Below, one piece after another: positions 38,779-54,487 of a stretch of 64,000 nucleotides of DNA. Under the pieces are notes generated by a model. It saw only the letters and a program-made list of their open reading frames with translations. It had not been told where the DNA came from and ran no database searches. This DNA is from an uncultured Achromobacter sp. (GTDB lineage: Bacteria; Pseudomonadota; Gammaproteobacteria; Burkholderiales; Burkholderiaceae_B), in NCBI GenBank assembly GCA_963530045.1, contig CAUSDE010000026.1, forward strand, positions 10,417 through 74,416. Direction: 5' to 3'. How positions within the stretch are numbered: position 1 is the first letter of the stretch; each line of letters begins with the position of its first letter. A program made the translations under genes and the position numbers.

Positions 38779-39741
38779 ATGAAAAACGTCGCTTTCCTTT
38801 TGCCGACGGGAGCCAATATCGCTTCCCTGGAAACCGCGCGCCATGGCTTTCTGGTGGCCAACGAGTATCTGGCGGCGCATGGCCGCGAACCGCGGTTCCG
38901 CGTGCGCACGTTGGCCTTGACCCGCGAGGTCAGTCTGGACGACGGCCGCATCAAGGTGCAGGCCGATCTGGTGCTGGCCGACGAGCCTGAAATCGACATC
39001 TGCATCGCGCCGCCTTTGCTGGGCGCGGTGTCCGATGCCGTGCTGTCCAACCGCGAGCTCATCGACTGGTTGTCGCGCCATCACCGCGAAGGCGGCGAAG
39101 TCGCCAGTTTGTGCATGGGCGCCGCGCTGCTGGCGGCAGGCGGAGTGCTGGATGGCCAGCAGGCGGTGGTGCATTGGGTGGCGCAGAACCTGTACGCCAG
39201 CCTGTTCCCGAACGTGCAATGGGTCAGTGACCGGATCGTCATGGCCGACAACGGCATCTATACCAGTGGCGGCGCGTTTTCGGCGGCGCATCTGGTGTTG
39301 CACCTGATCGAGAAATACACCGACCGCGACACCGCCATCTGGTGCGCCAAGTACTTCCAGCTGGATTGGAGCCGGCAGAGCCAGCTGCCGTTCTCGGTGT
39401 TCATGGGCCAGAAGGGCCATGCCGACGACGTCGTGCGCGCCGTGCAGAACGACATTGAAGGCCGCTACACGGAAAAGATCACCGTGGAAGATCTGGCCGA
39501 CCGCCATGCGATGGGCCGCCGCACGTTGGAACGGCGGTTCCGGCAGGCCACCGGAAACAGCATCGTGGAATACGTGCAGCGGGTCCGCGTCGAAGCCGCG
39601 AAGAAGCGGCTGGAGACCTCGCGCAAGAGCGTGTCGGAAGTCATGTACGAAGTCGGCTACAACGACACGAAGGCGTTTCGCGACATCTTCAGTAAATACT
39701 GCGGCATGTCGCCGGTGGGTTATCGCGAGCGCTATCAGTGA
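38779..39741 (+). CDS. GlxA-family regulator (DJ-1/PfpI + AraC)
   Basis: VASLCMGA, IYTSGGA, RTLERRF, EVMYEVGYNDTKAFR. Confidence 0.92.
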   Translation: MKNVAFLLPTGANIASLETARHGFLVANEYLAAHGREPRFRVRTLALTREVSLDDGRIKVQADLVLADEPEIDICIAPPLLGAVSDAVLSNRELIDWLSRHHREGGEVASLCMGAALLAAGGVLDGQQAVVHWVAQNLYASLFPNVQWVSDRIVMADNGIYTSGGAFSAAHLVLHLIEKYTDRDTAIWCAKYFQLDWSRQSQLPFSVFMGQKGHADDVVRAVQNDIEGRYTEKITVEDLADRHAMGRRTLERRFRQATGNSIVEYVQRVRVEAAKKRLETSRKSVSEVMYEVGYNDTKAFRDIFSKYCGMSPVGYRERYQ

Positions 39742-39751
39742 CGCTGCGCCA

Positions 39752-40045
39752 TCATCCGCGTTGCGGCGTCGCGGGGGCCGCGCTTTGCGCGGCGCCGCCG
39801 CGCAGGCGCAGATACTCCGCGTGGCGGCGCAAGTATTCGGCATCGTTGAGGTCAGGCGTGTCTTGCGTGCGCGAGAGTTCCGCCATCCCGGACTCGCGCC
39901 ATGCGCGCAGATCGGCCTGGATGTCGGCCTGCGTCAGCGTGCCGGCCGGGGGCGGCGGCACTTGGGTTTCTTCGGCGGCTGCGGCACTGCCAGCGGCAAG
40001 CGCGAAGACAAGTGTTGCGGCGGCGGATGCGAAGGTCATGGTCAT
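39752..40045 (-). CDS. Small secreted DUF4148-like protein
   Basis: AGGAG SD, signal peptide, LTQADIQADLRAWRESGM. Confidence 0.75.
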   Translation of the reverse strand: MTMTFASAAATLVFALAAGSAAAAEETQVPPPPAGTLTQADIQADLRAWRESGMAELSRTQDTPDLNDAEYLRRHAEYLRLRGGAAQSAAPATPQRG

Positions 40046-40112
40046 GTCGAGATCTCCTGTTGGTCGCATTCAATGCGGTTTGGGGGGATCGGCGTTTTCC
40101 GATCCTTGACGC

Positions 40113-40260
40113 CATTCTGGACAGCAGCGGCTGACCCCACCGTGACCCGCGCATAACATCTTTGTCAGCTTCGGCCACGCGATTTTCCGGGCTTGCGTCG
40201 TTTCGTCATTTCCGCGTCAGCAACGCGTCACGGTCAGGACAGTGTCGGGAATCTAGAGTG
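40113..40260. promoter_or_regulatory. Back-to-back promoters with OmpR/CusR-type GTCA repeats (DUF4148-like gene and RND operon)
   Basis: + strand: GTCA at 40205/40216/40227, then GTCACG-N20-CTAGAGTG; - strand: GTTA-N7-GTCACG-N20-CCAGAATG. Confidence 0.75.
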
Positions 40261-40292
40261 CATGCTCTTCACGTCTACGGGGCGACGCAGCC

Positions 40293-41495
40293 ATGGTGTC
40301 CTTCACGCAATTCCTGACGCGTCCGCGGATCATCGCGTCGGCTTCCTTTCTGGCGTTGGCGACCGCGGCAGCCGCCTATCTTTGGTGGCCGCGAGACAGC
40401 GGTGCGGCCGCGCCGGCCGAACGGCCAGCCGTTCCGGTGCGCATTGCGCTGGTGGAACGCCGGCCCGAATTGCCGATGCGCTTGCGCTTGCCTGGCGACG
40501 TCCGTTCCTTGCGCAGTGTCGATGTGCGCACGCAGGTCGATGGCGTGCTGAACGAGATCGCCGCGCAAGAGGGCGCCATGGTGCGGGCCGGAGACGTCCT
40601 GGCGCGCATCGACCATCGTGTGATCGAGTCCGAGCTGGTGCAAGCCCAGGCGCAGCACGCGATGGCGGCCGCGCAGTTGCACGTGGCGCGCCTCGATCTG
40701 GCGCGGTATCGCAGCCTACGCAAGGAAGAGGCCGTTTCCACGCAGATCCTGGAGCAGCAGGTGGCCCGGGTGAACGAGCTGCAAGCGTCTGCCCGCAATC
40801 TTGAGGCGGCCGTGCAGGCCCAGAAGGTCCTGCTGTCCCATACGGAGATCCGCTCGCCGTTGGAGGGCCGGGTCGGCCTGCTTCGGCTGCATGCGGGCAA
40901 TGTGCTACGTGCCGCGGAATCGCAGGTCATGTTCACCATCGTCCAGATGGATCCGATCGCGGTGGAAGTGTCGGTGCCGCAAGCGCTCTTGCCGCGCATC
41001 CAGGAGGCCTTGTCCGGCATGTCGGACGTGCCGGTGCAGGCGTATGCCAGCGACGGCGGAGCCGTTCTAGGCGAGGGCAGGCTGGCCCTGATCGACAACC
41101 AGGTCTCCGCGGCCAGCGGCACGATACGGTTGAAGGCGCTGTTCGACAATCGCGACGGCCGGCTCTGGCCGGGGCAGTCGGTCGTGGCGTCGGTGCAGTT
41201 GCAGGTGCTGCAGGACGTGCTGGTCGTGCCCGCCCGCGCGCTGCAGCGGGGCGACGGGCGCATCTTCGTCTGGCACGTCGAAGACGGCATGGCGCAGCCG
41301 CGCGAGGTAGACGTGCAGCATCAGACCGATACGCTGGCGGTGGTGTCGGGGGTGGACGCGGGCGCGGCCGTCGTCGTGGACGGCGCATCCCGCTTGTACC
41401 CGGGAGCGAAGGTGCGCACCGAGGCTGCGGGGGGCGGTACGCAGCCGCCTGGCGTGGCGATCGCGGGCAAGGTGGTCGCCGATGCAACGCGCTAG
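40293..41495 (+). CDS. RND periplasmic adaptor (MdtA/MexM-like)
   Basis: N-terminal TM, VRTQVDG, IRSPLEGRVG, IDNQV..ASGTIRLKALFDN, LWPGQ. Confidence 0.93.
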   Translation: MVSFTQFLTRPRIIASASFLALATAAAAYLWWPRDSGAAAPAERPAVPVRIALVERRPELPMRLRLPGDVRSLRSVDVRTQVDGVLNEIAAQEGAMVRAGDVLARIDHRVIESELVQAQAQHAMAAAQLHVARLDLARYRSLRKEEAVSTQILEQQVARVNELQASARNLEAAVQAQKVLLSHTEIRSPLEGRVGLLRLHAGNVLRAAESQVMFTIVQMDPIAVEVSVPQALLPRIQEALSGMSDVPVQAYASDGGAVLGEGRLALIDNQVSAASGTIRLKALFDNRDGRLWPGQSVVASVQLQVLQDVLVVPARALQRGDGRIFVWHVEDGMAQPREVDVQHQTDTLAVVSGVDAGAAVVVDGASRLYPGAKVRTEAAGGGTQPPGVAIAGKVVADATR

Positions 41496-44400
41496 CCTTT
41501 ATGCGTGGTGCATCGCGCATCCCGTCGGCACGGTGCTGTTGACGGTCGCCGTAGTGCTGTTGGGCGCGCTGGCGTATGCGCGTCTGCCCGTGGCGCCGCT
41601 GCCTGAAGTGGACTTTCCCACCATCCAAGTCGAAGCGCGGCTGCCTGGCGCCAGCGCCCAGACCATGGCCTCGTCGGTCGCCACGCCGCTCGAGGTGCAG
41701 TTCAGCGCGATTCCCGGCGTCAGCGAGATGACCTCGTCCAGTTCGATTGGCGCCACCACGCTGACCTTGCAGTTCTCGCTGGACAAGAACATCGACGTGG
41801 CGGCCCAGGAATTGCAGGCAGCCATCAATACCGCCGCGGGCCGTCTGCCCGCCGACATGCCCAACCTGCCCACCTGGCGCAAGGTGAATCCGGCGGACAG
41901 CCCGATCCTGATCCTCAGTGTGACGTCGGAGACCTTGTCGTTGACCGAACTGAGCGATCACACGGAGACCGTGCTGGCGCGCCAACTGAGCCAGGTGGAA
42001 GGGGTGGGCCAGATCACGCTGACGGGCCAGCGCCGGCCCGCGATACGTGTGCGCGCCAATCCCGAGTCGCTGGCGGCCACGCGCAGCAGCCTGGAAGACG
42101 TGCGCAGCGCCATCCAGCGCGGCAGCGTGAACCTGCCCAAAGGATCGCTGTTCGGCGCCGAACGCGTGGCGACGCTGGACGTGAACGACCAGTTGTTCGA
42201 TCCGGCGGACTACGGTGAACTGGTGATCGGCTACCGCGAAGGCCAGCCGGTGCTGCTGAAAGACGTCGCTACCGTCGAGCACGGCGCCGAAGATGATTAC
42301 GCCGGGGTGTGGCCCAACGGTAAACCGGGGGTCGGCGTGATCATCCGGCGCCAGCCCGGGGCCAATATCGTGGCGACGGCGGACCGCATCATGCAGGCGC
42401 TGCCGGCCCTGCAGGCGGCGTTGCCTGCCGATGTGGCCGTGGAGATCTACAACGACCGCACCCGCACCATCCGGTCGTCGCTGCACGAGGTGCAGTTGAC
42501 GCTTGTCGTGGCCATCGTGCTGGTGATCGCCGTGATGGCGGCATTCTTGAGGCAGGTGTCCGCCACATTGATCGTGTCCGCGGTGCTGGGGGTGTCGCTG
42601 GTGGCGACGTTCGCCGTGATGTCCCTGGCGGGATTCAGCCTGAACAACCTGACGCTGGTGGCGATCGTGGTGGCCGTGGGCTTCATCGTGGACGACGCCA
42701 TCGTGGTCATCGAGAACATCCACCGGCATCTTGAGGCCGGAGCGGGCATGCGCGAAGCGGCGCTCAAGGGCACCAGCGAAATCGGATTCACCGTGGTGTC
42801 CATCAGCGTGTCGCTGGTGGCGGCCTTCACGCCGCTGCTGTTCATGGACGGCATCGTGGGCCGGCTGTTCAGCGAATTCGCGCTGACTGCCACCGCCGCC
42901 ATCATGGTGTCCATGGTGGTGTGCCTGACGCTGGCGCCGACGCTGGCCAGCCTGTTCATGAAGCCGCAAGCGCATCCGCCCGGCACGGCGACCGGCCCGT
43001 CCGGCCGCCTGGTCACGCTGTACGAGCGGGCGCTGGATTGGGTGCTGGCACGCCAGCGCGCGACCTTGCTGGTGTTCCTGGCGACGGTGCTGGCCAGCGT
43101 CGCCAGCTTCGTGGCGATACCGAAGGGGTTCTTCCCGCTGCAGGACACGGGATTCATCATCGGGGTGACGCGCGCCGCTTCCGATATTTCGTACGAGGAC
43201 ATGGTGGAAAAGCACAAGCGGATCGAGGCCATCGTCCAGGCCGATCCGGACGTGGTGGGCGTCAACCACGCGGTGGGCGGGGCGGCGACGCTGGGCAATG
43301 GCCGCCTCTGGCTCGTGCTGAGCGATCCGGACGCGCGCAAAGCGTCGGCCAGCCAGGTCATCGACCGGCTGCGCCCGCAGTTCGCCGAGATTCCCGGCAT
43401 CCAGGTGTTCTTGCGCGCCGCCCAGGACATCAACATCGGGGCGGGGCAGCCGCGCGCGCAGTACCTGTACGTGATGCGGGCCCAGGACAGCGCCCAACTG
43501 GCCGACTGGGCCGAAAAGCTGACGGCGCAGTTGCAGCGGGACCCCTTGTTCCGCGACGCGTCGCACGACCTGCAATGGGACGCCCAGATCACCCGGCTGA
43601 CGATCGACCGGGCCGAAGCGGCGCGCTACGGTTTCACGGCAAGCGATGTGGACAACGCGCTGTACGATGCCTTCGGCCAACGCCAGATCAACCAGATCCA
43701 GACCGAGGCCAACCAGTACTACGTGGTGCTGGAGATCGACCGACATCAGCGCGGCACGGCCGACAGCCTGGCGTACTTCCAGTTGCGTTCGCCGTCGACC
43801 GGTGAGATGGTCCCTTTGCTGAGCTTCGTTCGGGTCGAGCCGGCGGTCAGGGGGCCGGCGGTGATCGTGCACGACGCGCTGCTGCCGGCGGTCAACCTGT
43901 CCTTCAACCTGGCGCCGGGGGCGGCGCTGGGTGATGCGGTGGACCGGCTGGAGCAGATCCGCGCCGACCTCGACATGCCGGCCAATGTCACCGGCACCTT
44001 CCAGGGCGCGGCCCAGGCCTTCCAGGACTCGCTGGCCAGCCAGCCCTGGCTGATCCTGGCGGCGCTGCTGGCGGTCTACATCATCCTGGGCGTGCTCTAC
44101 GAGAGCTTCGTGCACCCGCTGACAATTCTCTCCACGCTGCCGTCCGCGGGTTTGGGCGCCATCCTGTTCCTGTGGCTGTGGCGCCTGGATTTCTCGGTGA
44201 TGGCGTTGATCGGGTTGATCCTGCTGATCGGCATCGTCAAGAAGAACGGCATCCTGCTGGTCGACTTCGCGCTGCAAGCCCAGCGCGAGCGCGGGCTATC
44301 GGCGCAAGCGGCGATCCGGGAAGCCTGCTTGACGCGGTTCAGGCCGATCATCATGACGACGCTGGCGGCCGCGCTGGGCGCGGTGCCGTTGATGCTGGCG

Positions 44401-44583
44401 TTCGGCACGGGCGCCGAGCTGCGTGAACCCCTGGGCGTGGCCATCGTGGGCGGCCTCGCGGTCAGCCAGGTGCTGACGCTGCTGACCACGCCGGTCGTGT
44501 TCCTGGCGCTGAACCGCCTGTTCCTGGAACGCCGGGCCGCGACGCACGCGGCACAATCCCTGAAAAAGAGCGGATCGGCATGA
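41482..44583 (+). CDS. RND efflux permease (MdtB/C family, MexN-like)
   Basis: LPEVDFPTI, MASSVATPLE, KVNPADSP, VDDAIVVIENI, GIVKKNGI, RFRPIIMTT. Confidence 0.96.
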   Translation: MQRASLYAWCIAHPVGTVLLTVAVVLLGALAYARLPVAPLPEVDFPTIQVEARLPGASAQTMASSVATPLEVQFSAIPGVSEMTSSSSIGATTLTLQFSLDKNIDVAAQELQAAINTAAGRLPADMPNLPTWRKVNPADSPILILSVTSETLSLTELSDHTETVLARQLSQVEGVGQITLTGQRRPAIRVRANPESLAATRSSLEDVRSAIQRGSVNLPKGSLFGAERVATLDVNDQLFDPADYGELVIGYREGQPVLLKDVATVEHGAEDDYAGVWPNGKPGVGVIIRRQPGANIVATADRIMQALPALQAALPADVAVEIYNDRTRTIRSSLHEVQLTLVVAIVLVIAVMAAFLRQVSATLIVSAVLGVSLVATFAVMSLAGFSLNNLTLVAIVVAVGFIVDDAIVVIENIHRHLEAGAGMREAALKGTSEIGFTVVSISVSLVAAFTPLLFMDGIVGRLFSEFALTATAAIMVSMVVCLTLAPTLASLFMKPQAHPPGTATGPSGRLVTLYERALDWVLARQRATLLVFLATVLASVASFVAIPKGFFPLQDTGFIIGVTRAASDISYEDMVEKHKRIEAIVQADPDVVGVNHAVGGAATLGNGRLWLVLSDPDARKASASQVIDRLRPQFAEIPGIQVFLRAAQDINIGAGQPRAQYLYVMRAQDSAQLADWAEKLTAQLQRDPLFRDASHDLQWDAQITRLTIDRAEAARYGFTASDVDNALYDAFGQRQINQIQTEANQYYVVLEIDRHQRGTADSLAYFQLRSPSTGEMVPLLSFVRVEPAVRGPAVIVHDALLPAVNLSFNLAPGAALGDAVDRLEQIRADLDMPANVTGTFQGAAQAFQDSLASQPWLILAALLAVYIILGVLYESFVHPLTILSTLPSAGLGAILFLWLWRLDFSVMALIGLILLIGIVKKNGILLVDFALQAQRERGLSAQAAIREACLTRFRPIIMTTLAAALGAVPLMLAFGTGAELREPLGVAIVGGLAVSQVLTLLTTPVVFLALNRLFLERRAATHAAQSLKKSGSA

Positions 44584-45944
44584 TGACTCGCACGAAACGG
44601 TTGCCGGCCCTTGCCGCGTTGACGCTGTTGGCCGCCTGCTCGGCCGTGCCTCCGGAACTTGCGGCGCCCGCCCGGCCGCATTCCGCTGAAGGGGTGCTGG
44701 AGCAGGCGGGGATGCCCCTGCGCTGGTGGGAGAGCTTCGAGGATCCGGCACTGGACCGCCTGCTTTCGCAAGCGTTGGCGTCAAACCTGGACCTGGCGGC
44801 GGCGGCCGAGCGCATCCGGGAACAACGCGCCCAACGCCGGCTGGCGGGCGCCGCGTTGTTCCCGGTCGTGAACGCCGGCGCCAGCGCGCAGCGGGCCGCA
44901 GCCGTCGAACCGGCGTCCTGGGCGGGCCTGGACCTGTCCTGGGAGCTGGACTTGTTTGGACGGCTGCGCGCGCAGCGAGATGCCGCACAGGCCCAGGAGC
45001 AGGCAACCGAGCACGACTACCAGGCGCTGCGGTTGAGTTTGATGGCGGAAGTGGCCGTGGCGTATTTGCAATTGCGTCTGGCCGAGCAACAGGCGCGGCT
45101 TGCGGAAAGCACCGGCGAAGTCCTCCGGCGGACCAGCGCCCTGGTGGAGGCGCGCCGGCGGCTGGGAATGGCCAGCCGGCTGGATGCCGAACGGATGATC
45201 GCCGAGTCTGAATCGACGTATGCCGAAGTGCCGCTCGCGCAGCAGCAAGTGACGGCGGCGCGCCATGCGCTGGCCTATCTGCTGGCAACGGAGGTGGCCG
45301 CCATCGACGATGTGCTGGCCCTGGGCGGCGGGCAGCCGCAAGTGCCGCATCGGGACGCCCTGGAAGCGCTGCTGGCGATGCCGGTGGACGCGTTGCGCTG
45401 GCGGCCCGACGTGCGGGCGGCGGAACGGCGCATGGCGGCCTCCGGCGGCGAACTGGCGGCCGAACGGGCCGCACGTTTTCCGCAGCTGACCTTGGGCAGC
45501 CTGGGAGGCGTCGAGCAGGGCGTCAGCGGGCCGGCCTGGACGCTTGGCCTGCAACTGCTGCAACCCTTGTTCGACTTCGGCAGGATCCAGTCCCGCATCG
45601 ATGGCGCGGACGCCAGGCTGGCGCAGAGCCGGCTGGCTTATGCGTCGGCGCTGCGGCTGGCGGTCAGGCAAAGCCAGACCAGCATCCACGGCTACGGCCA
45701 GTCCATGCGCCGGGAGGCGCGGCTGGACGCCGCGGCGACGGCTGCCAGCCAGGCGGTCGGGCTGGCGCGACGGCAGTACGAGGCCGGCATGGTGTCGTTG
45801 CTGGAGGTGCTGGACGCGGAGCGCAGCGCCTACGATATCCAGCGTTCGCTCGCCAGCGCGCGGATCGATGTCGCGTTGCGCTGGGTGGAGATCTACCAGA
45901 CGTTGGGGGTCTACAGCGACGTGCCCGCCGCCCGCGCGGGGTGA
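44580..45944 (+). CDS. Outer membrane efflux lipoprotein (OprM/NodT family)
   Basis: Lipobox LAAC, WWESFEDPALDRL, SWELDLFG, RPDVRAAERR, LEVLDAER. Confidence 0.93.
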   Translation: MMTRTKRLPALAALTLLAACSAVPPELAAPARPHSAEGVLEQAGMPLRWWESFEDPALDRLLSQALASNLDLAAAAERIREQRAQRRLAGAALFPVVNAGASAQRAAAVEPASWAGLDLSWELDLFGRLRAQRDAAQAQEQATEHDYQALRLSLMAEVAVAYLQLRLAEQQARLAESTGEVLRRTSALVEARRRLGMASRLDAERMIAESESTYAEVPLAQQQVTAARHALAYLLATEVAAIDDVLALGGGQPQVPHRDALEALLAMPVDALRWRPDVRAAERRMAASGGELAAERAARFPQLTLGSLGGVEQGVSGPAWTLGLQLLQPLFDFGRIQSRIDGADARLAQSRLAYASALRLAVRQSQTSIHGYGQSMRREARLDAAATAASQAVGLARRQYEAGMVSLLEVLDAERSAYDIQRSLASARIDVALRWVEIYQTLGVYSDVPAARAG

Positions 45945-47062
45945 TGGCAGGCGGCCAGCACGCTGTCGTAGATGTCCAGCGTGCGGCCGACGAAACGCCG
46001 GACACCGAATTCGGCCACGCTTTTCGCGCGCGCCGACCGGCCCATGGCCCGCAGGCGCCCGCGTTGCAGGAGGATCTGCGCCAGGCATTGCGCGATGGCG
46101 GCCGGCGATCCGGGATCCACTATCCAGCCGTCAACGCCGTCCGTGATGTTCTCGGGCAGGCCCGCGTAGCGGCTGACCATCACCGGCTTGCCCATCGCCA
46201 TCATTTCGCGGCACGCGAACGAAATGGTCTCGATCCGGGTCGACAGCACGAATCCGATGTCCAACGCCGCCACGAACGGCCGCACGTCGGGCAGGAGGCC
46301 CGCATAGTAGACGTGATCCTCCATGCCCAGCGCCAGGACGCGGGCCTGCTGCTCGACCGTGGGCGGCTGACCGGCCACGGCCACCAGCACCTGTTCGCGC
46401 AAGGTAGGGGGCAGCAAGGCGACGGCTTGCACCATATGCAGCCAGTTCTTGTAGGAAGCCGTGCCGGCGTTGCTGCCGATGACGAGGCGGCCTGCGGTGC
46501 GGACGGGCCAGCTGTTGCGCACGCCGGCGCCCGCCGCGTGGGAATAGGGTTGGAACCAGTCCGTGTCCACGCCGTTCTTCACGGTCGAAATGGGGCGCCG
46601 GGCATAGGCCGACCGCTGCAGTTTCCGATGGGTGTCTTCGCAGACCGCGATCACGTGATCGGTGGCCAGGCTTGCGCGCAGAAAGGCTCCCAGCCCCGAG
46701 ACCTCGTGGTTGTCGTGCTTTGTGTACACGATCCGCGGCCCCGGTCCGGCCATTTTCATCCTGGCAAGCATCGCGCAGCGGTGGTCCAGCGAACCGTTGA
46801 CGTGCACGATGTCGAATTCGCCGGCCGCCATGATGTCCGCCAGGCGCGAGACCAGGGCGGGCGTGTGCCAGATGCGGCTGGAATAGTCCACCGCCATGGC
46901 TTCGGCAAGACCGGCCTGCCGCGCTTGCCCGTACAGGCGGCTGGTCCGCGGGGCAGCCAGGGCGACGTGATGCCGCGGTCCCAGATGCTGGATCAGGGTG
47001 GTGAGATAGGTGGTGTGCCCGCCGCCATCGCCCTTGTGGTAGTTGGTGTAGAGGATTTTCAT
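45911..47062 (-). CDS. GT4-family glycosyltransferase
   Basis: MKILYTN..GGGHTTY, DIVHVN, NGVDT, E-X7-E (ETISFACRE), AMGKPV. Confidence 0.92.
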   Translation of the reverse strand: MKILYTNYHKGDGGGHTTYLTTLIQHLGPRHHVALAAPRTSRLYGQARQAGLAEAMAVDYSSRIWHTPALVSRLADIMAAGEFDIVHVNGSLDHRCAMLARMKMAGPGPRIVYTKHDNHEVSGLGAFLRASLATDHVIAVCEDTHRKLQRSAYARRPISTVKNGVDTDWFQPYSHAAGAGVRNSWPVRTAGRLVIGSNAGTASYKNWLHMVQAVALLPPTLREQVLVAVAGQPPTVEQQARVLALGMEDHVYYAGLLPDVRPFVAALDIGFVLSTRIETISFACREMMAMGKPVMVSRYAGLPENITDGVDGWIVDPGSPAAIAQCLAQILLQRGRLRAMGRSARAKSVAEFGVRRFVGRTLDIYDSVLAACHHPARAAGTSL

Positions 47063-47124
47063 GGTTGCCAGGCGCAGGGCGCCCGCAAGACGGGCGGCAC
47101 TTGCTTGAAGGTTTGAATTCCTGG

Positions 47125-47257
47125 CACTCTAGTCAGGTGCGACTTACCCTAGCGTGACCTGTTGCTGACGCGAGGGCGTCACAAAACTGACAAAACCCTT
47201 GCTGACAATTGCGTCAGGTTCGGGTCATGTTCTTGACGGGGTTGCCAGGCTAGAGTG
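47125..47257. promoter_or_regulatory. Back-to-back promoters with the same box (GT4 gene and response regulator)
   Basis: - strand: CGCGTCAGCAACAGGTCACG-N20-CTAGAGTG; + strand: GCGTCAGGTTCGGGTCATG-N20-CTAGAGTG. Confidence 0.78.
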
Positions 47258-47356
47258 ACGGTGCGCCGTTGTCGCTGGCGCAGGGGTGCGTGCCGGCGGA
47301 GAAACCCGGTGGCGGCCGCGTCCAATCAAGACCTACTGAGAAGGCCCTCGGAGAAA

Positions 47357-48061
47357 ATGCGCCTGTTACTTCTGGAAGACGAGGCCAAGACGGCCTCGTA
47401 TATCAAACGGGGCCTGACCGGCCTGGGCTACACCGTGGATGTGGCCGACGACGGCACCGAGGGCCTGTTTCTGGCGCTCGAGCAGGACTACGACGGCATC
47501 ATCCTGGACGTCATGCTCCCTGGCCACGATGGCTACACCGTCCTGGAGCTGCTGCGCGCGCGCAAGAAGACGCCCGTGCTCATGCTGTCGGCGCGGGGCT
47601 CGGTCGACGAGCGCGTCAAAGGGCTGCGCAAGGGCGCCGACGACTATCTCCCCAAGCCTTTCTCGTTCACCGAACTGGTCGCACGCATCCAGGCGCTGCT
47701 GCGCCGGGGCGCGGGAGCGGGCGGCGAATCCACCTTGCTTCAAGTCGCCGACCTGCAGGTCGACATGATGGCGCGCCGGGCGATGCGCGGCGGCCAGCGG
47801 CTGGACCTGACGGCCAAGGAGTTCGCGCTGCTCAGCCTGCTGGCCCGGCATGAAGGCGAGATCCTGTCCAAGCTGATGATCGCGGAACAGGTCTGGGACA
47901 TGAATTTCGACAGTGACGCCAATGTGGTGGAGGTGGCCATGCGGCGGTTGCGGGTCAAGGTCGACGCGCCGTACGACAACAAGCTGCTGCATACGGTGCG
48001 GGGCATGGGCTATCTGCTGGAAAGCCGCGACCTGCCCGGCGCGGCGCAACCGGTCGACTGA
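47357..48061 (+). CDS. OmpR-family response regulator (CusR/CzcR/IrlR group)
   Basis: LLLEDE, ILDVMLP, GADDYLPKPF, VWDMNFDSDANVVEV, LHTVRGMGY. Confidence 0.95.
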   Translation: MRLLLLEDEAKTASYIKRGLTGLGYTVDVADDGTEGLFLALEQDYDGIILDVMLPGHDGYTVLELLRARKKTPVLMLSARGSVDERVKGLRKGADDYLPKPFSFTELVARIQALLRRGAGAGGESTLLQVADLQVDMMARRAMRGGQRLDLTAKEFALLSLLARHEGEILSKLMIAEQVWDMNFDSDANVVEVAMRRLRVKVDAPYDNKLLHTVRGMGYLLESRDLPGAAQPVD

Positions 48062-48064
48062 ACG

Positions 48065-49450
48065 ATGAGAGCGTCCATCTCAACGCGCCTGGCGTTGATG
48101 TTCGGCTTGTCCGTGGCGCTGATCGTATCGGTCTGCGCGGTGCTGCTGCACGGCTCGCTGAAGGCGTCGTTGCAGCAGCAGATGCGCAACGAGCTGGAAT
48201 TGCGGCACTCGCTGCTGGATCCGTTGCTGATGTCGCGCGATTCCAAAGAATCCTGGGCGAAAGCGATCAACAAGCTCAACGCGCTGGCGCCGGACGACGG
48301 TCCCGACGCGCAGCACTGGGTGGCCAGCGACGACCCTTTTTACCGTTACGGCGTGGACGCGCCGCAGGGCGTCGATTGGCGGGCCGTGCCGGACGGCTAT
48401 TCGACGCTGCCGCTTGAGCGCGGCTGTTGTCCGCTGAATGTCTTCATCACGACGCTGGCGCCTTTCGGCAGCCGTCCCGAGGTCCGTTTCATTGTCGCGC
48501 TGGATTCCACGCCCTACATGAAGACGTTGGGCGACTTCACCAGCACGCTGGTCGGCATGTCGATCGCCGGCACCTTGCTGGTCGCGCTGTTGGGCTATTT
48601 CATCGCCCGCCTGGGCCTGTTTCCGGTCAGGCGCCTGAGCGCGCAGGCTCACGGCCTGGCGCCGGGAAACTCCGGTCAGCGTTTGCGCACCCGGCATCTG
48701 CCCGCGGAAATCAAGGACATGGCCGTGTCGTTCAACGGCGTGCTGGAGCGGCAAGAAGTGGCGTGGCGCCAGCTTGAGAGCTTCAACGCCGATGTGGCCC
48801 ACGAACTGCGCACGCCGCTGACCAACCTGGTGGGGCAGACCCAGCTGGGCCTGGCGGTGGGCAAGGACGTGCACGAGTTCAAGGAGCTGCTCCAGTCCAA
48901 CCTGGAGGAGCTTGAGCGGATGACGTCGATCATCAACGACATGCTGTTTCTGTCGCACGCGCAAGTCGGCCGGATGGCGATGGACCTGAGCGACGTGTCG
49001 TTGCGCGAAGAGGCGGCCAAGACCACGGAATATGTCGAACCGCTGTTCGGGGACAAGGATCTGACCGTGACGCTCAACGGCGATGCGCGCGCGCTGATTG
49101 ACCGCAGGCTGTTTCACCGGGCGCTGGCGAACCTGCTGGAGAACGCGGCGTTCTACGCCAAGCCGGGAACCGACGTCGCGGTCGCGATGCAAGAGCAGAC
49201 CGGCATGGCGCAGGTGTGCGTCTCCAATGTGGGCGACCCCATCGACGCCCAATCGTTGCCGCGCCTGTTTGAACGCTTCTTCCGGGTGGAGTCCGCCCGC
49301 ACGCAAAGCGACAAGCACCACGGCCTGGGCCTGTCCATCGTGAAGGCCATCGCGTCGATCCACCAGGGCGACGTGTTCGTGCGCAGCGAAAACGGGGTCA
49401 ACACGTTCGGGTTCACCATGGCTTGCCGGCCAGCGCCGGGCGCGCAATAA
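48065..49450 (+). CDS. Sensor histidine kinase (CusS/CzcS-like group)
   Basis: Two TMs, HAMP, ADVAHELRTPL, NLLENA, LFERFFR, HGLGLSIV. Confidence 0.95.
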   Translation: MRASISTRLALMFGLSVALIVSVCAVLLHGSLKASLQQQMRNELELRHSLLDPLLMSRDSKESWAKAINKLNALAPDDGPDAQHWVASDDPFYRYGVDAPQGVDWRAVPDGYSTLPLERGCCPLNVFITTLAPFGSRPEVRFIVALDSTPYMKTLGDFTSTLVGMSIAGTLLVALLGYFIARLGLFPVRRLSAQAHGLAPGNSGQRLRTRHLPAEIKDMAVSFNGVLERQEVAWRQLESFNADVAHELRTPLTNLVGQTQLGLAVGKDVHEFKELLQSNLEELERMTSIINDMLFLSHAQVGRMAMDLSDVSLREEAAKTTEYVEPLFGDKDLTVTLNGDARALIDRRLFHRALANLLENAAFYAKPGTDVAVAMQEQTGMAQVCVSNVGDPIDAQSLPRLFERFFRVESARTQSDKHHGLGLSIVKAIASIHQGDVFVRSENGVNTFGFTMACRPAPGAQ

Positions 49451-49696
49451 GCGCCAGTCCGGGGTAGGGCCGCCGGACAGCGACTGGATATTCACCACTG
49501 CGGGATCGCTTCGCGCGCGCGGGCATTTACTGCCTGATTCGTGTGCGGCGGGATGTCGGCTGCGCGTCAGGCGAACGTATCGGTTTGAGATTCGATGTAA
49601 AAATTTGTAGGTTATTATCGCGCGGCTTGCGTGATTTGAATGAAAGCCGCATCAGGCATACGCCTGGGTTAATAACAGTCAGATTCAAAATCCGGT

Positions 49697-52600
49697 ATGA
49701 AAACGAGAAACAAGAAAGCACCGCATTACGCCACGCAATATGGCGCTACGACCAGAAGTGAATTTACCGGGGTAATGACGCGCCGCCCGCAGGCGGTTGC
49801 GATTTCCCGAAGTTTCGTCCCGGCATGGGCGATCGGCGGCGCGATGTTGCTGAGCTCGGCGATGGCGCATGGGACGGTGATTGGCGTCGGAGATATACAC
49901 GAGCTGCCATTCACTCCCTTGGACAACGCGCCGGTTCACATGGCGGGCGGCACATTGGTGGCGCATATGGATGCCGCCCTTTCCCCGCTGCAAAAACTGG
50001 TATTCGAGGAGAATACAGGCAGCGTCGTGACGGTAAACCAATTTTCCACATTGACGATCGGCGGCGGCGTGGATTTGCGAGGCATTGCGCATTTCGGCGA
50101 GATTGGTAGCCTGGGTGTTATCCAGTTGACGGACGGAGGCCCGATTACGGTCGGCGCGGAAGGCGGATTCACGGTAATGGGTGGCACGCTTAGAAATGCG
50201 GCAGGAAGCGACGCACTGAGCGGGCTTACCCGCCAAGTTGCTTCGACCTACGTCCACCAAGGCGGCACGCTGGACTTTCAAGGCGGCACCGCGCACATCA
50301 AGAATCTGCAAGGCAATGGCACCGTCAATGCCGGTTTCGGTTCGCCGGAAGCGCTGGTTGTGGAACAGGGCAACTTCTCCGGTGCGATACTCGGTGGGGC
50401 AAAGTTCAAGAAAGTCTCCTCGGGCACGTTTGAATATCATCACGACCAAGGCTTGAGCGGTGTGATCGAGGTGGCGCAAGGCACTCTGCTGGCTGGCGGA
50501 ACTGGAAGCTATGGCACCGCAGGCAAGAGCATCCTCAATAACGGCTCGCTCGTGTTCAAGTGGTTCGCGGGCGGTGTCTCGGGGGACATTTCGGGGTCCG
50601 GCAACGTGGATGCGACCGTGAATTCGCTGGTCGCGCTGACCGGAACGAACACCTATAGCGGCACCACGAAGATCGACCACACCTCGCAGATCATTCTTGC
50701 CGACGCCGGTGCGCCGACGGACTCGTCGAGCACGCTGGGGACCGGCGCGGTCTTGAATGACGGCAGGCTCAGCAATCAACGGGCCGGCCGCACGCTTATT
50801 GCCAATGGCATCTCGGGGAACGGCGCCGTATTTCACAGCAGTCCGGGCTGGTTGACGCTTTCGGGAGACAACACCTACAGCGGCGGGACAGAGATCACTA
50901 GCGGCGGCACGCTGGAAATCGGAACCGGCGGCTCGACGGGAAGCCTGGGAACGGGATATTTGGCCACCGCTGCGGGGAGCACGCTGATCTTCAACCGTGG
51001 CGACGATTTCTCCGTGGCCAACAACATGTCGTATTCGGAGTCGACCCTTATCAAAAAGGGCGCCGGCACGATGACCGTCACGGGCCCTACGGGCGGATTC
51101 AATGCGCTGGTGGACATCCAGAGCGGCACGATCCGGTATGTGAACGCGCCGGGCTCATCGATGATCCCCCCGGGAAACATCAATATTGCGCAGGGCGCGC
51201 AAGTGGTCTTTGACAACGCCGAGATCTTTCCTTCCGGCGAACGGTTTACAGGACAGGGGACGATCCGCAAGACCGGCGCGGCACGATTCCATTACTCGGG
51301 CGACAGCTCTGGATTTTCCGGCTCCACCATTATCGACGGGGGAGAACTCTATCTGGCGAATGGTTGGCTGGGCGGCACCGTGACCATCAACGCCGGCGGA
51401 CGCTTGCAGGGCACGGGCCGAGTCGGGACGACGGACATCCTGGCCGGCGGCATGCTGGTCAGCTCGGGTTATTCCCGTTTGCGGATCAACGGCGACCTGT
51501 CTCTCAAGGACGGTTCCACGTTCCGCTATTACCTGGGCGATCCCGGGCCCGACGCGGCCAACGCCGGCACGACCGGTTCCACCCGGGTTGTCGGCAACCT
51601 GGACCTGAACGCCAAGCTGCAGATTCGCGACAATGCGCAGCCGACCATCGGCTACTACCGCTTGTTCACCTACGGCGGTACGTTGAGCGGGAATGGGCTG
51701 ACGCTGGACACGATCCCGGCAGACCACACTCGGGACCAGTTCTTGATCGATACCACGCGTGCCGGCTTCGTCGACCTGCGCGTGGCTCCCGCTACGACGC
51801 CTGATGCTTTGCTGGTCTGGACCGGTGGCTCAGGAACGTGGGGGGCAGGTGGCCTGCAGTGGGAGGCGGATGGCCAGCCGGGCTGGTCGGGTGCCTGGGG
51901 CCAGCAGCATGCTGTGTTCAAAGGCGCCGCCGGTCTGGTCTCGGTCTCCGGCACTCAGACATTCAAGGGCTTGCAGTTCGTGTCCGACGGCTGGCAGATC
52001 GGGCCTCTTGCCGGCACAGGCGGGGCCTTGCAGATGGCGGGTGACGGTAGTGAACTGCGCGTGCTGGCCGGCGTGACCGCCACGGTCGGCGCGCCGATTC
52101 AGGGCGCCAGCGTGTTGGACAAAACGGGCGGCGGCACCTTGGTGCTGGACGGTGTGAACGGCCACACCGGCGGCACCCGACTGTCCGAAGGCGTGCTCAG
52201 TGTGTCGCAGGACGCCAGCCTGGGCGATGGCGCAAGCGACTTGATGTTCAACGGCGGCACGCTGCGCGTAACGGGCCAGAGCTTCTCGCAGACAGCGCGC
52301 AATCTGCAGTGGAGCGCGCAGGGCGGGGCATTCGATATCGCGTCGGCCAGCAATCGCTTCACGGTGGGGCAGGCGCTGTCGGGTGCGGGCGATCTGGTCA
52401 AGCTGGGTGCCGGCACGCTGGTGCTGACGGGCACCAACGCCTACGGCAACACGCGCGTTGAAGCCGGTACGCTGGTGGGCAATACGGATTCGATCCGCGG
52501 CAATTTGCAGAACAACGGTTTCGTCGTGTTCGATCAGGCCTCTAGCGGAACGTTTGGCGGCGACATCTCGGGCTCGGGCGAAGCCACCAAGACTGGCGCG

Positions 52601-54487
52601 GGTGTCCTGACCTTGTCGGGCCGCAGCGTACAGAACTGGCGCGTGACGGCCGGTACGCTGGCCGCCTCGGGCGGCGCCCTGTCCGGCAATGTGGACGTGG
52701 GAGCGGCCGGAGCGTTGCATCTGGACGCCCCGCAATCGAGTACCTATTCGGGCGTCTTGTCCGGAACGGGCGGCTTGTCCAAGACCGGCGCAGGCATGCT
52801 GGCGTTGACCGGCGACAGCGCGGGTTTCGCCGGAACCACCCGCATCGATCAAGGCATCTTGTCGGTCGGCATCAATGGGCAGGGCAAGCTGGGCGGCCAG
52901 GTGACGGTGGCCCGCGACGCCGTGCTGCAAGGAACGGGCACCGTGGGCGGCACCACCGTGCAGGCGGGCGGCGTCATCGCGCCGGGGAACTCCATCGGCA
53001 CGTTGCATGTGGCCGGCGACCTGACGCTGGAAGCCGGTTCGGTGTACCGGGTCGAGGCAGATCCGCAGTCCAATAACAGCGACCGCATCGCCGTCAGCGG
53101 CACCGCCAACCTGGGCGGTTCGGTGGTGCACGTCGGCCCGGACGGCAATCTGGCGGGCGAGCGCAGCTATACCATCCTGACCGCCAACCGGATCAACGGG
53201 GCATTCTCTTCCGCATCGTCCGAGTTCGCGTATCTGGACGCGAACCTGGGCTACGACGCCCAGGCCGTAACGCTGCGTCTGGACCGCAAGCGCGTGCCGG
53301 TGGACCCGTCCACGCCGTCCACGCCGGGCACTCGTCCGGTGCGTTTCGCCGACGCCGCAAGCACGTCGAACCAGCGCGCCACCGCGAATGCGCTGGACAG
53401 CCTGTCCGGTGCGAACCCGCTGTATCAGTACGTGCTGACCCTGCCGGAAGGCGCACCCGCCGGGGTGTTCGACAGCCTGTCCGGTGAAACGCATGCCAGC
53501 GTGACGTCCAGCCTGAACAATCTGAGCGGACTGTCGCGGAACTTGCCGTTCAAGAGCTTGCGCGCCAATCTGGATGCGGGCCTTGCGCCGGGCGCCGCCA
53601 CCGCGCAGGCAGCCGGCACGTCGCCCGCATCGGCACTGCCGGGGTCGGCGGCGCAACCCGCCTGGGCCGAGCTTGTCGGCACCTGGCAGACGCTGGATGG
53701 CAACGGCAACGCCTCGCGCGTGGATCAGCGTACCGGCGGCGTGTTCGTCGGCGCTGACCACGCGGTGGGCGGCGGTTGGCGCCTGGGCGGCGCGTTGGGT
53801 TACACCGACAGCCGCATCCGGGTAGACGCGAATTCGTCCAAGGCGGACGTCGATAGCTACAGCGCGACGGTCTATGGCGGCAAGGCGTTCCAGGCCGGGC
53901 CGGGCAAGATCAATCTGCTGGTTGGCGCGGGCTACACCTGGCACGACATTTCCACGACGCGCAACGTCGCGGTCGCAGGCCAGCAAGACAAGCTGACCGC
54001 CGACTATGGCGCCAGCACCGGTCAGCTCTTTACCGAACTGGGCTATGCGTGGCCGGTGGCCGAGCGGACGCAGCTGGAGCCCTTCGCGGGTGTGGCGTGG
54101 TCCGACACGCGTACCCGCGGCTTCCAGGAATCGGGCGGCGTGGCGGCGTTGAGCGGGGAAAGCAACCGCAATTCGCTGACCACGACCACGCTGGGCCTGC
54201 GCGGCAAGACGGCGTTTACCGCCGGCAAGACGGAAGGCGTGCTGCGTGCCGCCGCCGGTTGGCGCCATGCGTTCGGCGACGTCGAATCGCAAACGCGACT
54301 GGCCTTCAACGGCAGCCAGCCGTTCACGGTCTCGGGCGCACCGCTGGCGCGTGACGCGGCATTCACCGAACTGGGTGTGGATATCGCGGTGTCGCGTTCT
54401 GCCACGATCGGCATCAGCTATAGCGGCCAGTTCGGCGGCGGCAATCGCGAGAATGCGGGTACCGTGGGTGTAACGTGGCGGTACTGA
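49697..54487 (+). CDS. Type Va autotransporter with PATR repeats (AIDA-like adhesin)
   Basis: Long signal peptide; repeats such as LVKLGAGTLVLTGTNAY and APGNSIGTL; Pro linker; C-terminal beta-barrel ending VTWRY. Confidence 0.95.
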   Translation: MKTRNKKAPHYATQYGATTRSEFTGVMTRRPQAVAISRSFVPAWAIGGAMLLSSAMAHGTVIGVGDIHELPFTPLDNAPVHMAGGTLVAHMDAALSPLQKLVFEENTGSVVTVNQFSTLTIGGGVDLRGIAHFGEIGSLGVIQLTDGGPITVGAEGGFTVMGGTLRNAAGSDALSGLTRQVASTYVHQGGTLDFQGGTAHIKNLQGNGTVNAGFGSPEALVVEQGNFSGAILGGAKFKKVSSGTFEYHHDQGLSGVIEVAQGTLLAGGTGSYGTAGKSILNNGSLVFKWFAGGVSGDISGSGNVDATVNSLVALTGTNTYSGTTKIDHTSQIILADAGAPTDSSSTLGTGAVLNDGRLSNQRAGRTLIANGISGNGAVFHSSPGWLTLSGDNTYSGGTEITSGGTLEIGTGGSTGSLGTGYLATAAGSTLIFNRGDDFSVANNMSYSESTLIKKGAGTMTVTGPTGGFNALVDIQSGTIRYVNAPGSSMIPPGNINIAQGAQVVFDNAEIFPSGERFTGQGTIRKTGAARFHYSGDSSGFSGSTIIDGGELYLANGWLGGTVTINAGGRLQGTGRVGTTDILAGGMLVSSGYSRLRINGDLSLKDGSTFRYYLGDPGPDAANAGTTGSTRVVGNLDLNAKLQIRDNAQPTIGYYRLFTYGGTLSGNGLTLDTIPADHTRDQFLIDTTRAGFVDLRVAPATTPDALLVWTGGSGTWGAGGLQWEADGQPGWSGAWGQQHAVFKGAAGLVSVSGTQTFKGLQFVSDGWQIGPLAGTGGALQMAGDGSELRVLAGVTATVGAPIQGASVLDKTGGGTLVLDGVNGHTGGTRLSEGVLSVSQDASLGDGASDLMFNGGTLRVTGQSFSQTARNLQWSAQGGAFDIASASNRFTVGQALSGAGDLVKLGAGTLVLTGTNAYGNTRVEAGTLVGNTDSIRGNLQNNGFVVFDQASSGTFGGDISGSGEATKTGAGVLTLSGRSVQNWRVTAGTLAASGGALSGNVDVGAAGALHLDAPQSSTYSGVLSGTGGLSKTGAGMLALTGDSAGFAGTTRIDQGILSVGINGQGKLGGQVTVARDAVLQGTGTVGGTTVQAGGVIAPGNSIGTLHVAGDLTLEAGSVYRVEADPQSNNSDRIAVSGTANLGGSVVHVGPDGNLAGERSYTILTANRINGAFSSASSEFAYLDANLGYDAQAVTLRLDRKRVPVDPSTPSTPGTRPVRFADAASTSNQRATANALDSLSGANPLYQYVLTLPEGAPAGVFDSLSGETHASVTSSLNNLSGLSRNLPFKSLRANLDAGLAPGAATAQAAGTSPASALPGSAAQPAWAELVGTWQTLDGNGNASRVDQRTGGVFVGADHAVGGGWRLGGALGYTDSRIRVDANSSKADVDSYSATVYGGKAFQAGPGKINLLVGAGYTWHDISTTRNVAVAGQQDKLTADYGASTGQLFTELGYAWPVAERTQLEPFAGVAWSDTRTRGFQESGGVAALSGESNRNSLTTTTLGLRGKTAFTAGKTEGVLRAAAGWRHAFGDVESQTRLAFNGSQPFTVSGAPLARDAAFTELGVDIAVSRSATIGISYSGQFGGGNRENAGTVGVTWRY

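Follow-up and report, generated by a model that had tools for sequence, protein, structure and literature searches.

A predicted CusR-group regulon combining a MexN-like efflux pump with an LPS-core-type glycosyltransferase in Achromobacter

The module and the closest described systems

Efflux of phenicols or β-lactams is a trait expected of the MexMN-MmnRS system of Pseudomonas aeruginosa, in which mexM, mexN, a response regulator and a sensor kinase follow each other in one same-strand row. The signal of P. aeruginosa mexMN is reported as unknown (PMC11195947), and the name MmnRS is used here for the P. aeruginosa pair on the basis of its position and of a reference title in that paper. In the AgrRS regulon of Cupriavidus metallidurans (agrCBA-agrRS, PrsQ/CopQ), a metal-type regulator-kinase pair lies beside a multidrug-type resistance-nodulation-division (RND) pump, with a 6-4-6 inverted repeat and in-phase direct repeats, positive autoregulation and small periplasmic protein targets (PMC7380067), features that may have counterparts in the locus described here. 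We analyzed a stretch of 64,000 nucleotides (the window) on contig C26 of a 6.85-Mb genome whose nearest named relatives are Achromobacter. Positions 39752-49450 hold a module comprising an RND pump, a small DUF4148 protein, a glycosyltransferase of family GT4 and a regulator-kinase pair. Its regulatory logic, of the MmnRS/AgrRS type, is already known; the new element is a regulated GT4 of the type found in lipopolysaccharide (LPS) core synthesis. With moderate confidence, and from sequence comparisons, we propose that the regulator co-induces itself, the MexN-like pump, the DUF4148 protein and the GT4, which likely adds an amino sugar to the LPS core, and that efflux and core remodelling would proceed in parallel. 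The genes of the module are the following.

39752-40045, minus strand: small DUF4148 protein of 97 amino acids, predicted to be exported (Pfam PF13663, 29.7 bits against a cut-off of 27; ATG at 40045)
40293-41495, plus strand: membrane-fusion protein (MFP), MdtA/MexM-like (TIGR01730 over cut-off; 46% identical to P. aeruginosa MexM)
41482-44583, plus strand: RND permease of the MdtBC/MexN multidrug group (PF00873; 63.4% identical to annotated P. aeruginosa MexN; D404-D405 present)
44580-45944, plus strand: outer-membrane factor (OMF) of the NodT type (TIGR01845 over cut-off)
45911-47062, minus strand: GT4 retaining glycosyltransferase, paralogue of an LPS-core cluster gene that likely fills the BP2328/BAV2235 slot (Pfam; 45% identical to the core-cluster copy on contig C77)
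47357-48061, plus strand: OmpR-family response regulator, CusR/CzcR/CopR group (TIGR01387, 297.8 bits, cut-off 279.2)
48065-49450, plus strand: sensor kinase, partner of a CusR/CzcR/CopR-group regulator (TIGR01386, 381.6 bits, cut-off 292.55)

The 3' ends of the OMF and GT4 genes overlap by 34 nt. The longest open reading frame (ORF) of the DUF4148 gene extends to 40069; AGGAG precedes 40045, and the start at 40045 is the more likely one. The protein, aligned with 10 relatives, has a hydrophobic leader that ends in AAA, from which we infer export.

An earlier note on this DNA had called the pump MexMN-like. This is borne out by the 63% identity of the permease to MexN (the next match in the plasmid collection is 49.5% identical) and by the same box layout before the MFP gene mexM; the MFP (46%), the regulator (62% identical to the regulator behind P. 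aeruginosa mexN) and the kinase (42%) are alike as well. No OMF, GT4 or DUF4148 gene is annotated in 11 kb at MexMN-MmnRS, whereas the module has its own OMF, an inserted GT4, a regulator with its own boxed promoter, and four boxes. AxySUV and AinCDJ were considered for the identity of the pump and rejected, as these are TetR-regulated and MexCD-like (PMC12189693). Unlike AgrRS, with its half-sites ATKACA/TGTMAT, the module has TGAC/GTCA half-sites, and its pump and GT4 promoters carry direct repeats only. In the excerpted description of AgrRS, moreover, AgrCBA was uninduced in an agrS mutant and the table of selected targets lists no glycosyltransferase (PMC7380067).

A permease search (87-100% identity) placed the module in 4 of 62 genomes of the genus. 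One metagenome contig carries it too; the metagenome scan gave 2 loci only. Achromobacter pestifer (L009) and Achromobacter anxifer (L010) also carry the module, the latter without an adjacent DUF4148 match, and were left out of the count as they may overlap genomes already counted. Here and in L005 the module is flanked by an autotransporter with PATR repeats (49697-54487) and a DJ-1/AraC regulator (38779-39741). Its neighbours in L006, L091 and L167 differ from these, so the module occupies two chromosomal sites. No box was found upstream of the flanking autotransporter, and a repeat search of the module yielded only two inward-facing boxes and chance matches.

Promoter boxes and their probable link to the adjacent regulator

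The earlier note had described a 45-nucleotide pattern, GT(C/T)A-N7-GTCA(C/T)G-N20-C(T/C)AGA(G/A)TG, before each of the four transcription units, and all four 45-mers are in place and fit it. Across the entire genome the pattern matches these four sites and nothing else, and it has no match in the reversed genome. The expectation from word frequencies is 0.0008, a value that overstates the significance because the pattern was fitted to these very sites; conservation was therefore used as an independent test. Of the 12 corresponding promoter positions in L005, L006 and L091, 11 carry boxes with the same spacing and diverged spacers, and the twelfth moved together with its gene; the pump and GT4 boxes are conserved in L005, L006, L091 and L167. 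The four promoter motifs are confirmed as real. The fuller form of the box is [TGAC-N6-]GTYA-N7-GTCA-N7-GWCV-N12-(-10), in which a third half-site, 11 bp further on, is present in every promoter and ends 12 nt before a -10-like hexamer (TAGAGT or CAGAAT). A TGAC-N6-GTYA palindrome opens the regulator and DUF4148 promoters, and the pump promoter has an extra direct repeat at 40205. The earlier note had described direct repeats alone and had overlooked the CusR/AgrR-type palindrome.

40114-40168, minus strand: DUF4148 box, TGAC-N6-GTTA palindrome followed by a further two half-sites with an 11-bp period, N12, CAGAAT
40205-40259, plus strand: pump box, GTCA three times and GACA at 11-bp period, N12, TAGAGT; no palindrome
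47126-47169, minus strand: GT4 box, GTCA-N7-GTCA-N7-GTAA-N12-TAGAGT
47202-47256, plus strand: regulator box, TGAC-N6-GTCA palindrome, GTCA, GACG, N12, TAGAGT; predicted autoregulation site

A 12-mer reported as common to the pump and GT4 promoters is present at 40213 (plus) and 47172 (minus), but only 8 of its 12 positions are alike in each of L005, L006 and L091, and it was rejected as a conserved feature. Scans of 39600-49800 found no canonical sigma-70 promoter (1.1 in shuffles) and no terminator (6.1 in shuffles), which fits activator-dependent promoters without proving them. RNA from three runs of one study covered the module patchily as contigs, from which strand, start and level were not readable, and was unused as evidence.

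To relate the box to its regulator, a strict pattern that includes the palindrome was searched in 301 genomes of the family, with reversed genomes as control. The pattern matched 40 times, in 35 genomes, and had no match in the control. Of the 33 genomes that encode a close kinase, 23 had the strict box, against 12 of the 268 others; in the former, 26 of 27 sites lay at most 10 kb from that kinase. Nine boxed loci viewed from genomes without a close kinase had the box before an OMF gene (5), a cupredoxin gene (1), a related regulator (1) or a gene without query match (2). P. aeruginosa mexM is preceded by TGAC-N6-GTCA-N7-GTCA-N7-GTCC-N12-TATAAA (L187:2745). The AgrR box of C. metallidurans has been footprinted as a 6-4-6 inverted repeat with in-phase direct repeats, both required for activation (PMC7380067); the AgrR consensus (ATKACA-N4-TGTMAT) is matched at 9 of 12 positions by the regulator promoter and at 10 of 12 by the DUF4148 promoter, both with repeats. 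The module box also lies upstream of genes that resemble msrP-msrQ by eye in L139 and L165, a related regulator pair diverging from them in L165.

We consider it likely that the adjacent MmnR/AgrR-like regulator binds the box and controls all four units, itself included, and that the units are co-regulated in the MmnRS-MexMN/AgrRS manner; the proposal in the earlier note of an autoregulated OmpR-family pair is upheld in so far as the box, its conservation and its linkage to the kinase point to it. Several observations weigh against it. The pump and GT4 promoters, direct repeats lacking the palindrome, match the AgrR consensus at 6 and 5 of 12 positions. The genome encodes five more regulators of the CusR group, and regulators of this group cross-bind and share targets (PMC11195947). 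Induction of agrRS in C. metallidurans brought no significant induction of the pump beside it (log2 0.18-0.95; PMC7380067), so adjacency alone does not give co-induction. In favour of it, the four window sites come out on top in this genome under a matrix trained on 11 orthologous promoters from three other genomes, at 42-54 bits against 18.5 for the next site, although shared ancestry inflates these scores and the gap.

A different reader of the repeats, either PhoB or a paralogous CusR-type protein, appears highly improbable. GTCA at an 11-bp period looks like a pho box, and the box layout recurs upstream of the paralogous pump on C70 and of the czcC-like gene of this genome. The pstS box of this genome, however, reads TGTCA-N6-TGTCA and ends 11 nt before the -10, whereas T precedes the middle GTCA in none of 15 module promoters, where 12 nt separate the box from the -10. 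The pstS locus gave no score, and the box follows this kinase clade across genera. PhoB and the Pho regulon were rejected on half-site and spacing.

The description of the regulon as self-contained holds by motif in this genome but not in G081, where three remote boxes stand on a different contig, with the DUF4148 orthologue and two further genes. In the present genome the extended pattern has six sites, namely the four window boxes, C70:15007 and C71:7922. In 14 loci of the nearest kinase clade in other genera (48-52% identity) there is no pump or GT4 match, and 7 have DUF4148; further loci of other genera have cytochrome b561-YceI or porin genes beside the regulator-kinase pair. This variation among neighbours implies a core unit of regulator and kinase with exchangeable targets. 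A class-wide kinase search was too sparse (2/400).

The glycosyltransferase and the LPS core

GlcN(Ac) transfer to core glucose is the activity expected of BP2328-type glycosyltransferases. The module GT4 is 45% identical, over 97% of its length, to a gene of the core cluster on C77, which stays in the genome. That cluster has the order dnaE-GT4-deacetylase-GT2-GT4-deacetylase-like-GT4-msbA, where dnaE and msbA are our presumptive names, given from sequence, for its ends. In Bordetella, BP2328-BP2331 has been described as a core biosynthesis cluster (PMC10743493), with BP2328 as core glucosaminyltransferase; the substitution H9Y inactivates its Bordetella avium counterpart BAV2235, and two loci from BAV2235/BP2328 there is a further GT4 (PMC12722373). 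The position in the cluster, a second GT4 two genes further along and the invariance of H9 suggest that the core-cluster copy on C77 corresponds to BP2328. H9 and E278-X7-E286 are invariant in 10 of 10 aligned GT4s. The module GT4 is a paralogue of the gene in what is likely the BP2328/BAV2235 slot: it belongs to the GT4 subfamily of the matching Achromobacter core-slot gene and keeps H9 and EX7E, but differs from BP2328/BAV2235 in being an additional, separately regulated copy outside the core cluster. A structural model and fold search gave a GT-B fold (best TM 0.84); the best hits were 17-23% identical and named no acceptor.

Neighbourhoods of this subfamily were read at 68 of 83 listed Achromobacter loci with at least 40% identity and at L091, 69 in total; the 15 left out all fall in the 43-46% band, whose fetched loci are mostly core-cluster copies. 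In these counts, which are no statistical test as kin are not independent, 21 copies belong to a core cluster, 30 come after a waaZ-like gene and 14 have a CusR-type regulator next to them, while 1 combines both settings and 3 show neither; 52 are thus linked to a core cluster or waaZ and 15 to a CusR-type regulator. The waaZ-like call comes from Atlas (0.99; PF27901 in 98% of members), and the local Pfam copy gave no match. E. coli WaaZ adds a third Kdo under envelope stress (PMC4651636). The regulator-linked copies adjoin cop genes (six loci, each with its box pointing at the GT4), czc-like genes, or the pump described here. A search of the GT4 against plasmids at 1e-60 found no match.

Several of these loci are of interest in themselves. 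In L001:7995-9406 (G000:C12), L007, L008, L113, L114 and L115, a paralogous GT4 diverges from a CusR-type pair that is accompanied by genes for a cupredoxin and a multicopper oxidase. About 270 nt upstream of this GT4 stands a cop-type box with TAGAGT that points at it, with a possible short ORF behind AGGAG in between. The GT4s of L003:8255-9412 (G000:C3), L121 and L122 stand behind a CzcA-type pump. In L121 and L122 the GT4 is followed by regulator, kinase and a DUF4148-like gene; the pair is lost in this genome, and the copy in L122 carries a frameshift. Regulator, kinase, DUF4148-like gene and GT4 are present in L118 and L124, and L219:12-4676 (G036:C17) has regulator, kinase, DUF4148-like, waaZ-like and GT4 genes in series, at the chromosomal site where most Achromobacter have the waaZ-like gene and GT4 only. 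In L132 (G000:C12:5000-24999), a czc-like island of low GC content carries two regulators, two DUF4148-like genes and a GT2, together with a 37% identical paralogue of another core-cluster GT4; its boxes are at C12:14092 and C12:9113. The LPS-core slot itself holds two distinct GT4 alleles in different tree clades, one in L004:8176-9300 and the other in L116, L117, L123 and L125, which suggests core-type variation within Achromobacter.

A tree of 53 GT4 rows was built, leaving out 53 of the 106 extracted rows, mostly Lysobacterales. The module GT4s form their own clade (100/100), apart from a cop/czc/waaZ clade (100/98) and a clade of the C3 copy with Bordetella (99/96). In topology tests on 28 rows under a simpler model, with groups defined after inspection of the tree, a single clade for all three groups was rejected (p-AU 0.0038) and a single clade for the module and cop/czc/waaZ GT4s was not (p-AU 0.20). 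At least two recruitments of the GT4 are likely, though not proven; three independent recruitments are not claimed, in view of the second test.

The assignment to a core acceptor has to be weighed against three points: the GT4 shares only 45-52% identity with each of the other clades in its subfamily, its branch is long (0.79), so that the acceptor may have changed, and the BP2328 assignment is by gene order and H9 only. With these in mind it is conceivable, though unlikely, that the regulon is real but that its GT4 acts on another envelope acceptor (a glycolipid, exopolysaccharide or protein) or is a co-regulated passenger of low effect. Such a reading would suit the roughly 50% identity to other clades, the lack of a deacetylase or waaZ-like gene in the module and the occurrence of the module in only four genomes of the genus; it sits poorly with a reading frame, H9, EX7E and promoter box kept in four genomes at 72-80% identity and with GT4 copies of at least two lineages under such boxes. 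Regulated LPS modification has described counterparts in the metal-induced LPS-modifying gtrMAB genes in resistance islands of C. metallidurans (PMC2864759) and in the stress-regulated waaZ of E. coli (PMC4651636). They differ in that gtrMAB is said to carry precursors across the membrane so that LPS can be glucosylated (PMC2864759), that waaZ adds Kdo (PMC4651636), and that the excerpted descriptions of both mention no MmnR/AgrR-type box (PMC2864759, PMC4651636).

Proposed parallel efflux and core remodelling, and the probable signal

The earlier note had left a choice between glycosylation coupled to export and envelope remodelling coupled to efflux. In the first case the GT4 would conjugate a toxic small molecule, or build a glycoconjugate, for export by the RND pump. 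In its favour, GT4 and pump stand side by side, each with its box, in 4 of 4 module genomes and on the metagenome contig, an adjacency that speaks against independent roles even though these genomes are of shared descent. The divergence of the module GT4 clade and the presence of the small-molecule enzymes BshA and MshA among distant GT4 structures fit this idea too, although BshA and MshA are just 19-23% identical in the structural alignments. The main argument against it is that pump and GT4 are separable. None of 18 Pseudomonadaceae pump loci read (of 24 found) had a GT4 match in up to 20 kb. The closest pumps there (71-72%) are at three loci with an OMF and the same box, the regulator pair adjoining two of the three, and five such genomes that were searched contain no member of the GT4 subfamily (best 26%). 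Conversely, G771 and G772 have a boxed GT4 at 23 and 29 kb from a regulator of 73-74% identity, with no pump match in the loci read. Each of the two thus occurs under the box without the other. As the GT4 subfamily is furthermore tied to LPS-core genes in 52 of 69 loci, glycosylate-and-export is disfavoured and judged improbable, and envelope remodelling coupled to efflux is the favoured option.

In that favoured reading, the sensor would detect chemical stress at the level of the envelope, with an organic, electrophilic or redox agent more likely than a metal. The regulator would occupy the in-phase half-sites, of which the last overlaps the -35 region, and switch on all four promoters. The pump would expel the agent, while the cytoplasmic GT4, as a regulated spare of the housekeeping core enzyme, would change the glycosylation of the LPS core; its sugar is probably GlcNAc, which the core-cluster deacetylases could turn into GlcN. 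The changed core would alter the charge or permeability of the outer membrane, so that pump and GT4 would act as parallel defences rather than as steps of one pathway.

With regard to the signal, the nearest plasmid-borne kinases (55%) have the same box and lie among aldo/keto reductases, nitroreductase and flavodoxin, a neighbourhood that leans to organic or redox stress. In the loci concerned, L188:9435 and L189:9435 on enterobacterial plasmids, a regulator pair of 74%/55% identity is surrounded by genes for aldo/keto reductase, nitroreductase, cupin and flavodoxin, and the box lies at the end of the kinase gene. In the sensor domain the periplasmic His48 is invariant among 18 aligned sequences, and a Cys121-Cys122 pair is present in all four module genomes and L167 and in none of the other aligned kinases.

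The invariant His48 would suit a metal ligand too, which counts against an organic signal. A metal-resistance module, with Cu, Zn, Ag or a thiophilic metalloid bound by the sensor at His48 and Cys121-Cys122 and a mode of action like that of the cop- and czc-linked GT4 modules, would depart from the explanation given above in its signal only; we regard it as a minor but serious possibility. Regulator and kinase pass the "heavy metal" NCBIfam cut-offs, paralogous GT4s adjoin cop and czc systems, and AgrRS is tied to silver resistance (PMC7380067). In another Achromobacter, As(III) and Sb(III) induced unspecified DUF4148 genes (PMC11719878), which we were unable to connect with this module. The pump, however, belongs to the multidrug group: it stays below the cut-off for the HME-RND class of CzcA/CusA (TIGR00914, 357 against 701), and its 88% identical orthologue is just 28% identical to a CzcA-type permease. 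Both regulator and kinase are below the CusR and HprR equivalog cut-offs (for the regulator, 273 against 420 for CusR), and the nearest kinase relatives adjoin organic-detoxification enzymes.

Since a regulatory design of this kind is known, the four-promoter motif on its own is unsurprising. The extended box has enough specificity for predicting the regulons of a poorly understood sensor group across genera, including that of P. aeruginosa mexMN, and in the opportunistic pathogen Achromobacter paralogues of the LPS-core GT4 are repeatedly found next to cop-, czc- and Mmn-type regulators. Tentatively, we envisage that CusR-group two-component systems in Achromobacter and genera akin to Bordetella run a hitherto undescribed LPS-core remodelling switch. 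Paralogues of BP2328-type GT4s, in some cases together with WaaZ, may have been recruited repeatedly under cop-, czc- and Mmn-type boxes as a counterpart to control of the PmrAB type, and the present module may be wired to a MexN-like pump through a sensor whose periplasmic Cys-Cys pair reads thiol-reactive stress. In the open-access literature we found no description of LPS-core GT4 paralogues linked to such regulators, most subscription papers lying outside the search. Core GT4 mutants of B. avium show phenotypes of the permeability, phage and polymyxin type (PMC12722373). If core remodelling on demand is true, it would be an unrecognised route to altered outer-membrane permeability, phage susceptibility and polymyxin tolerance.

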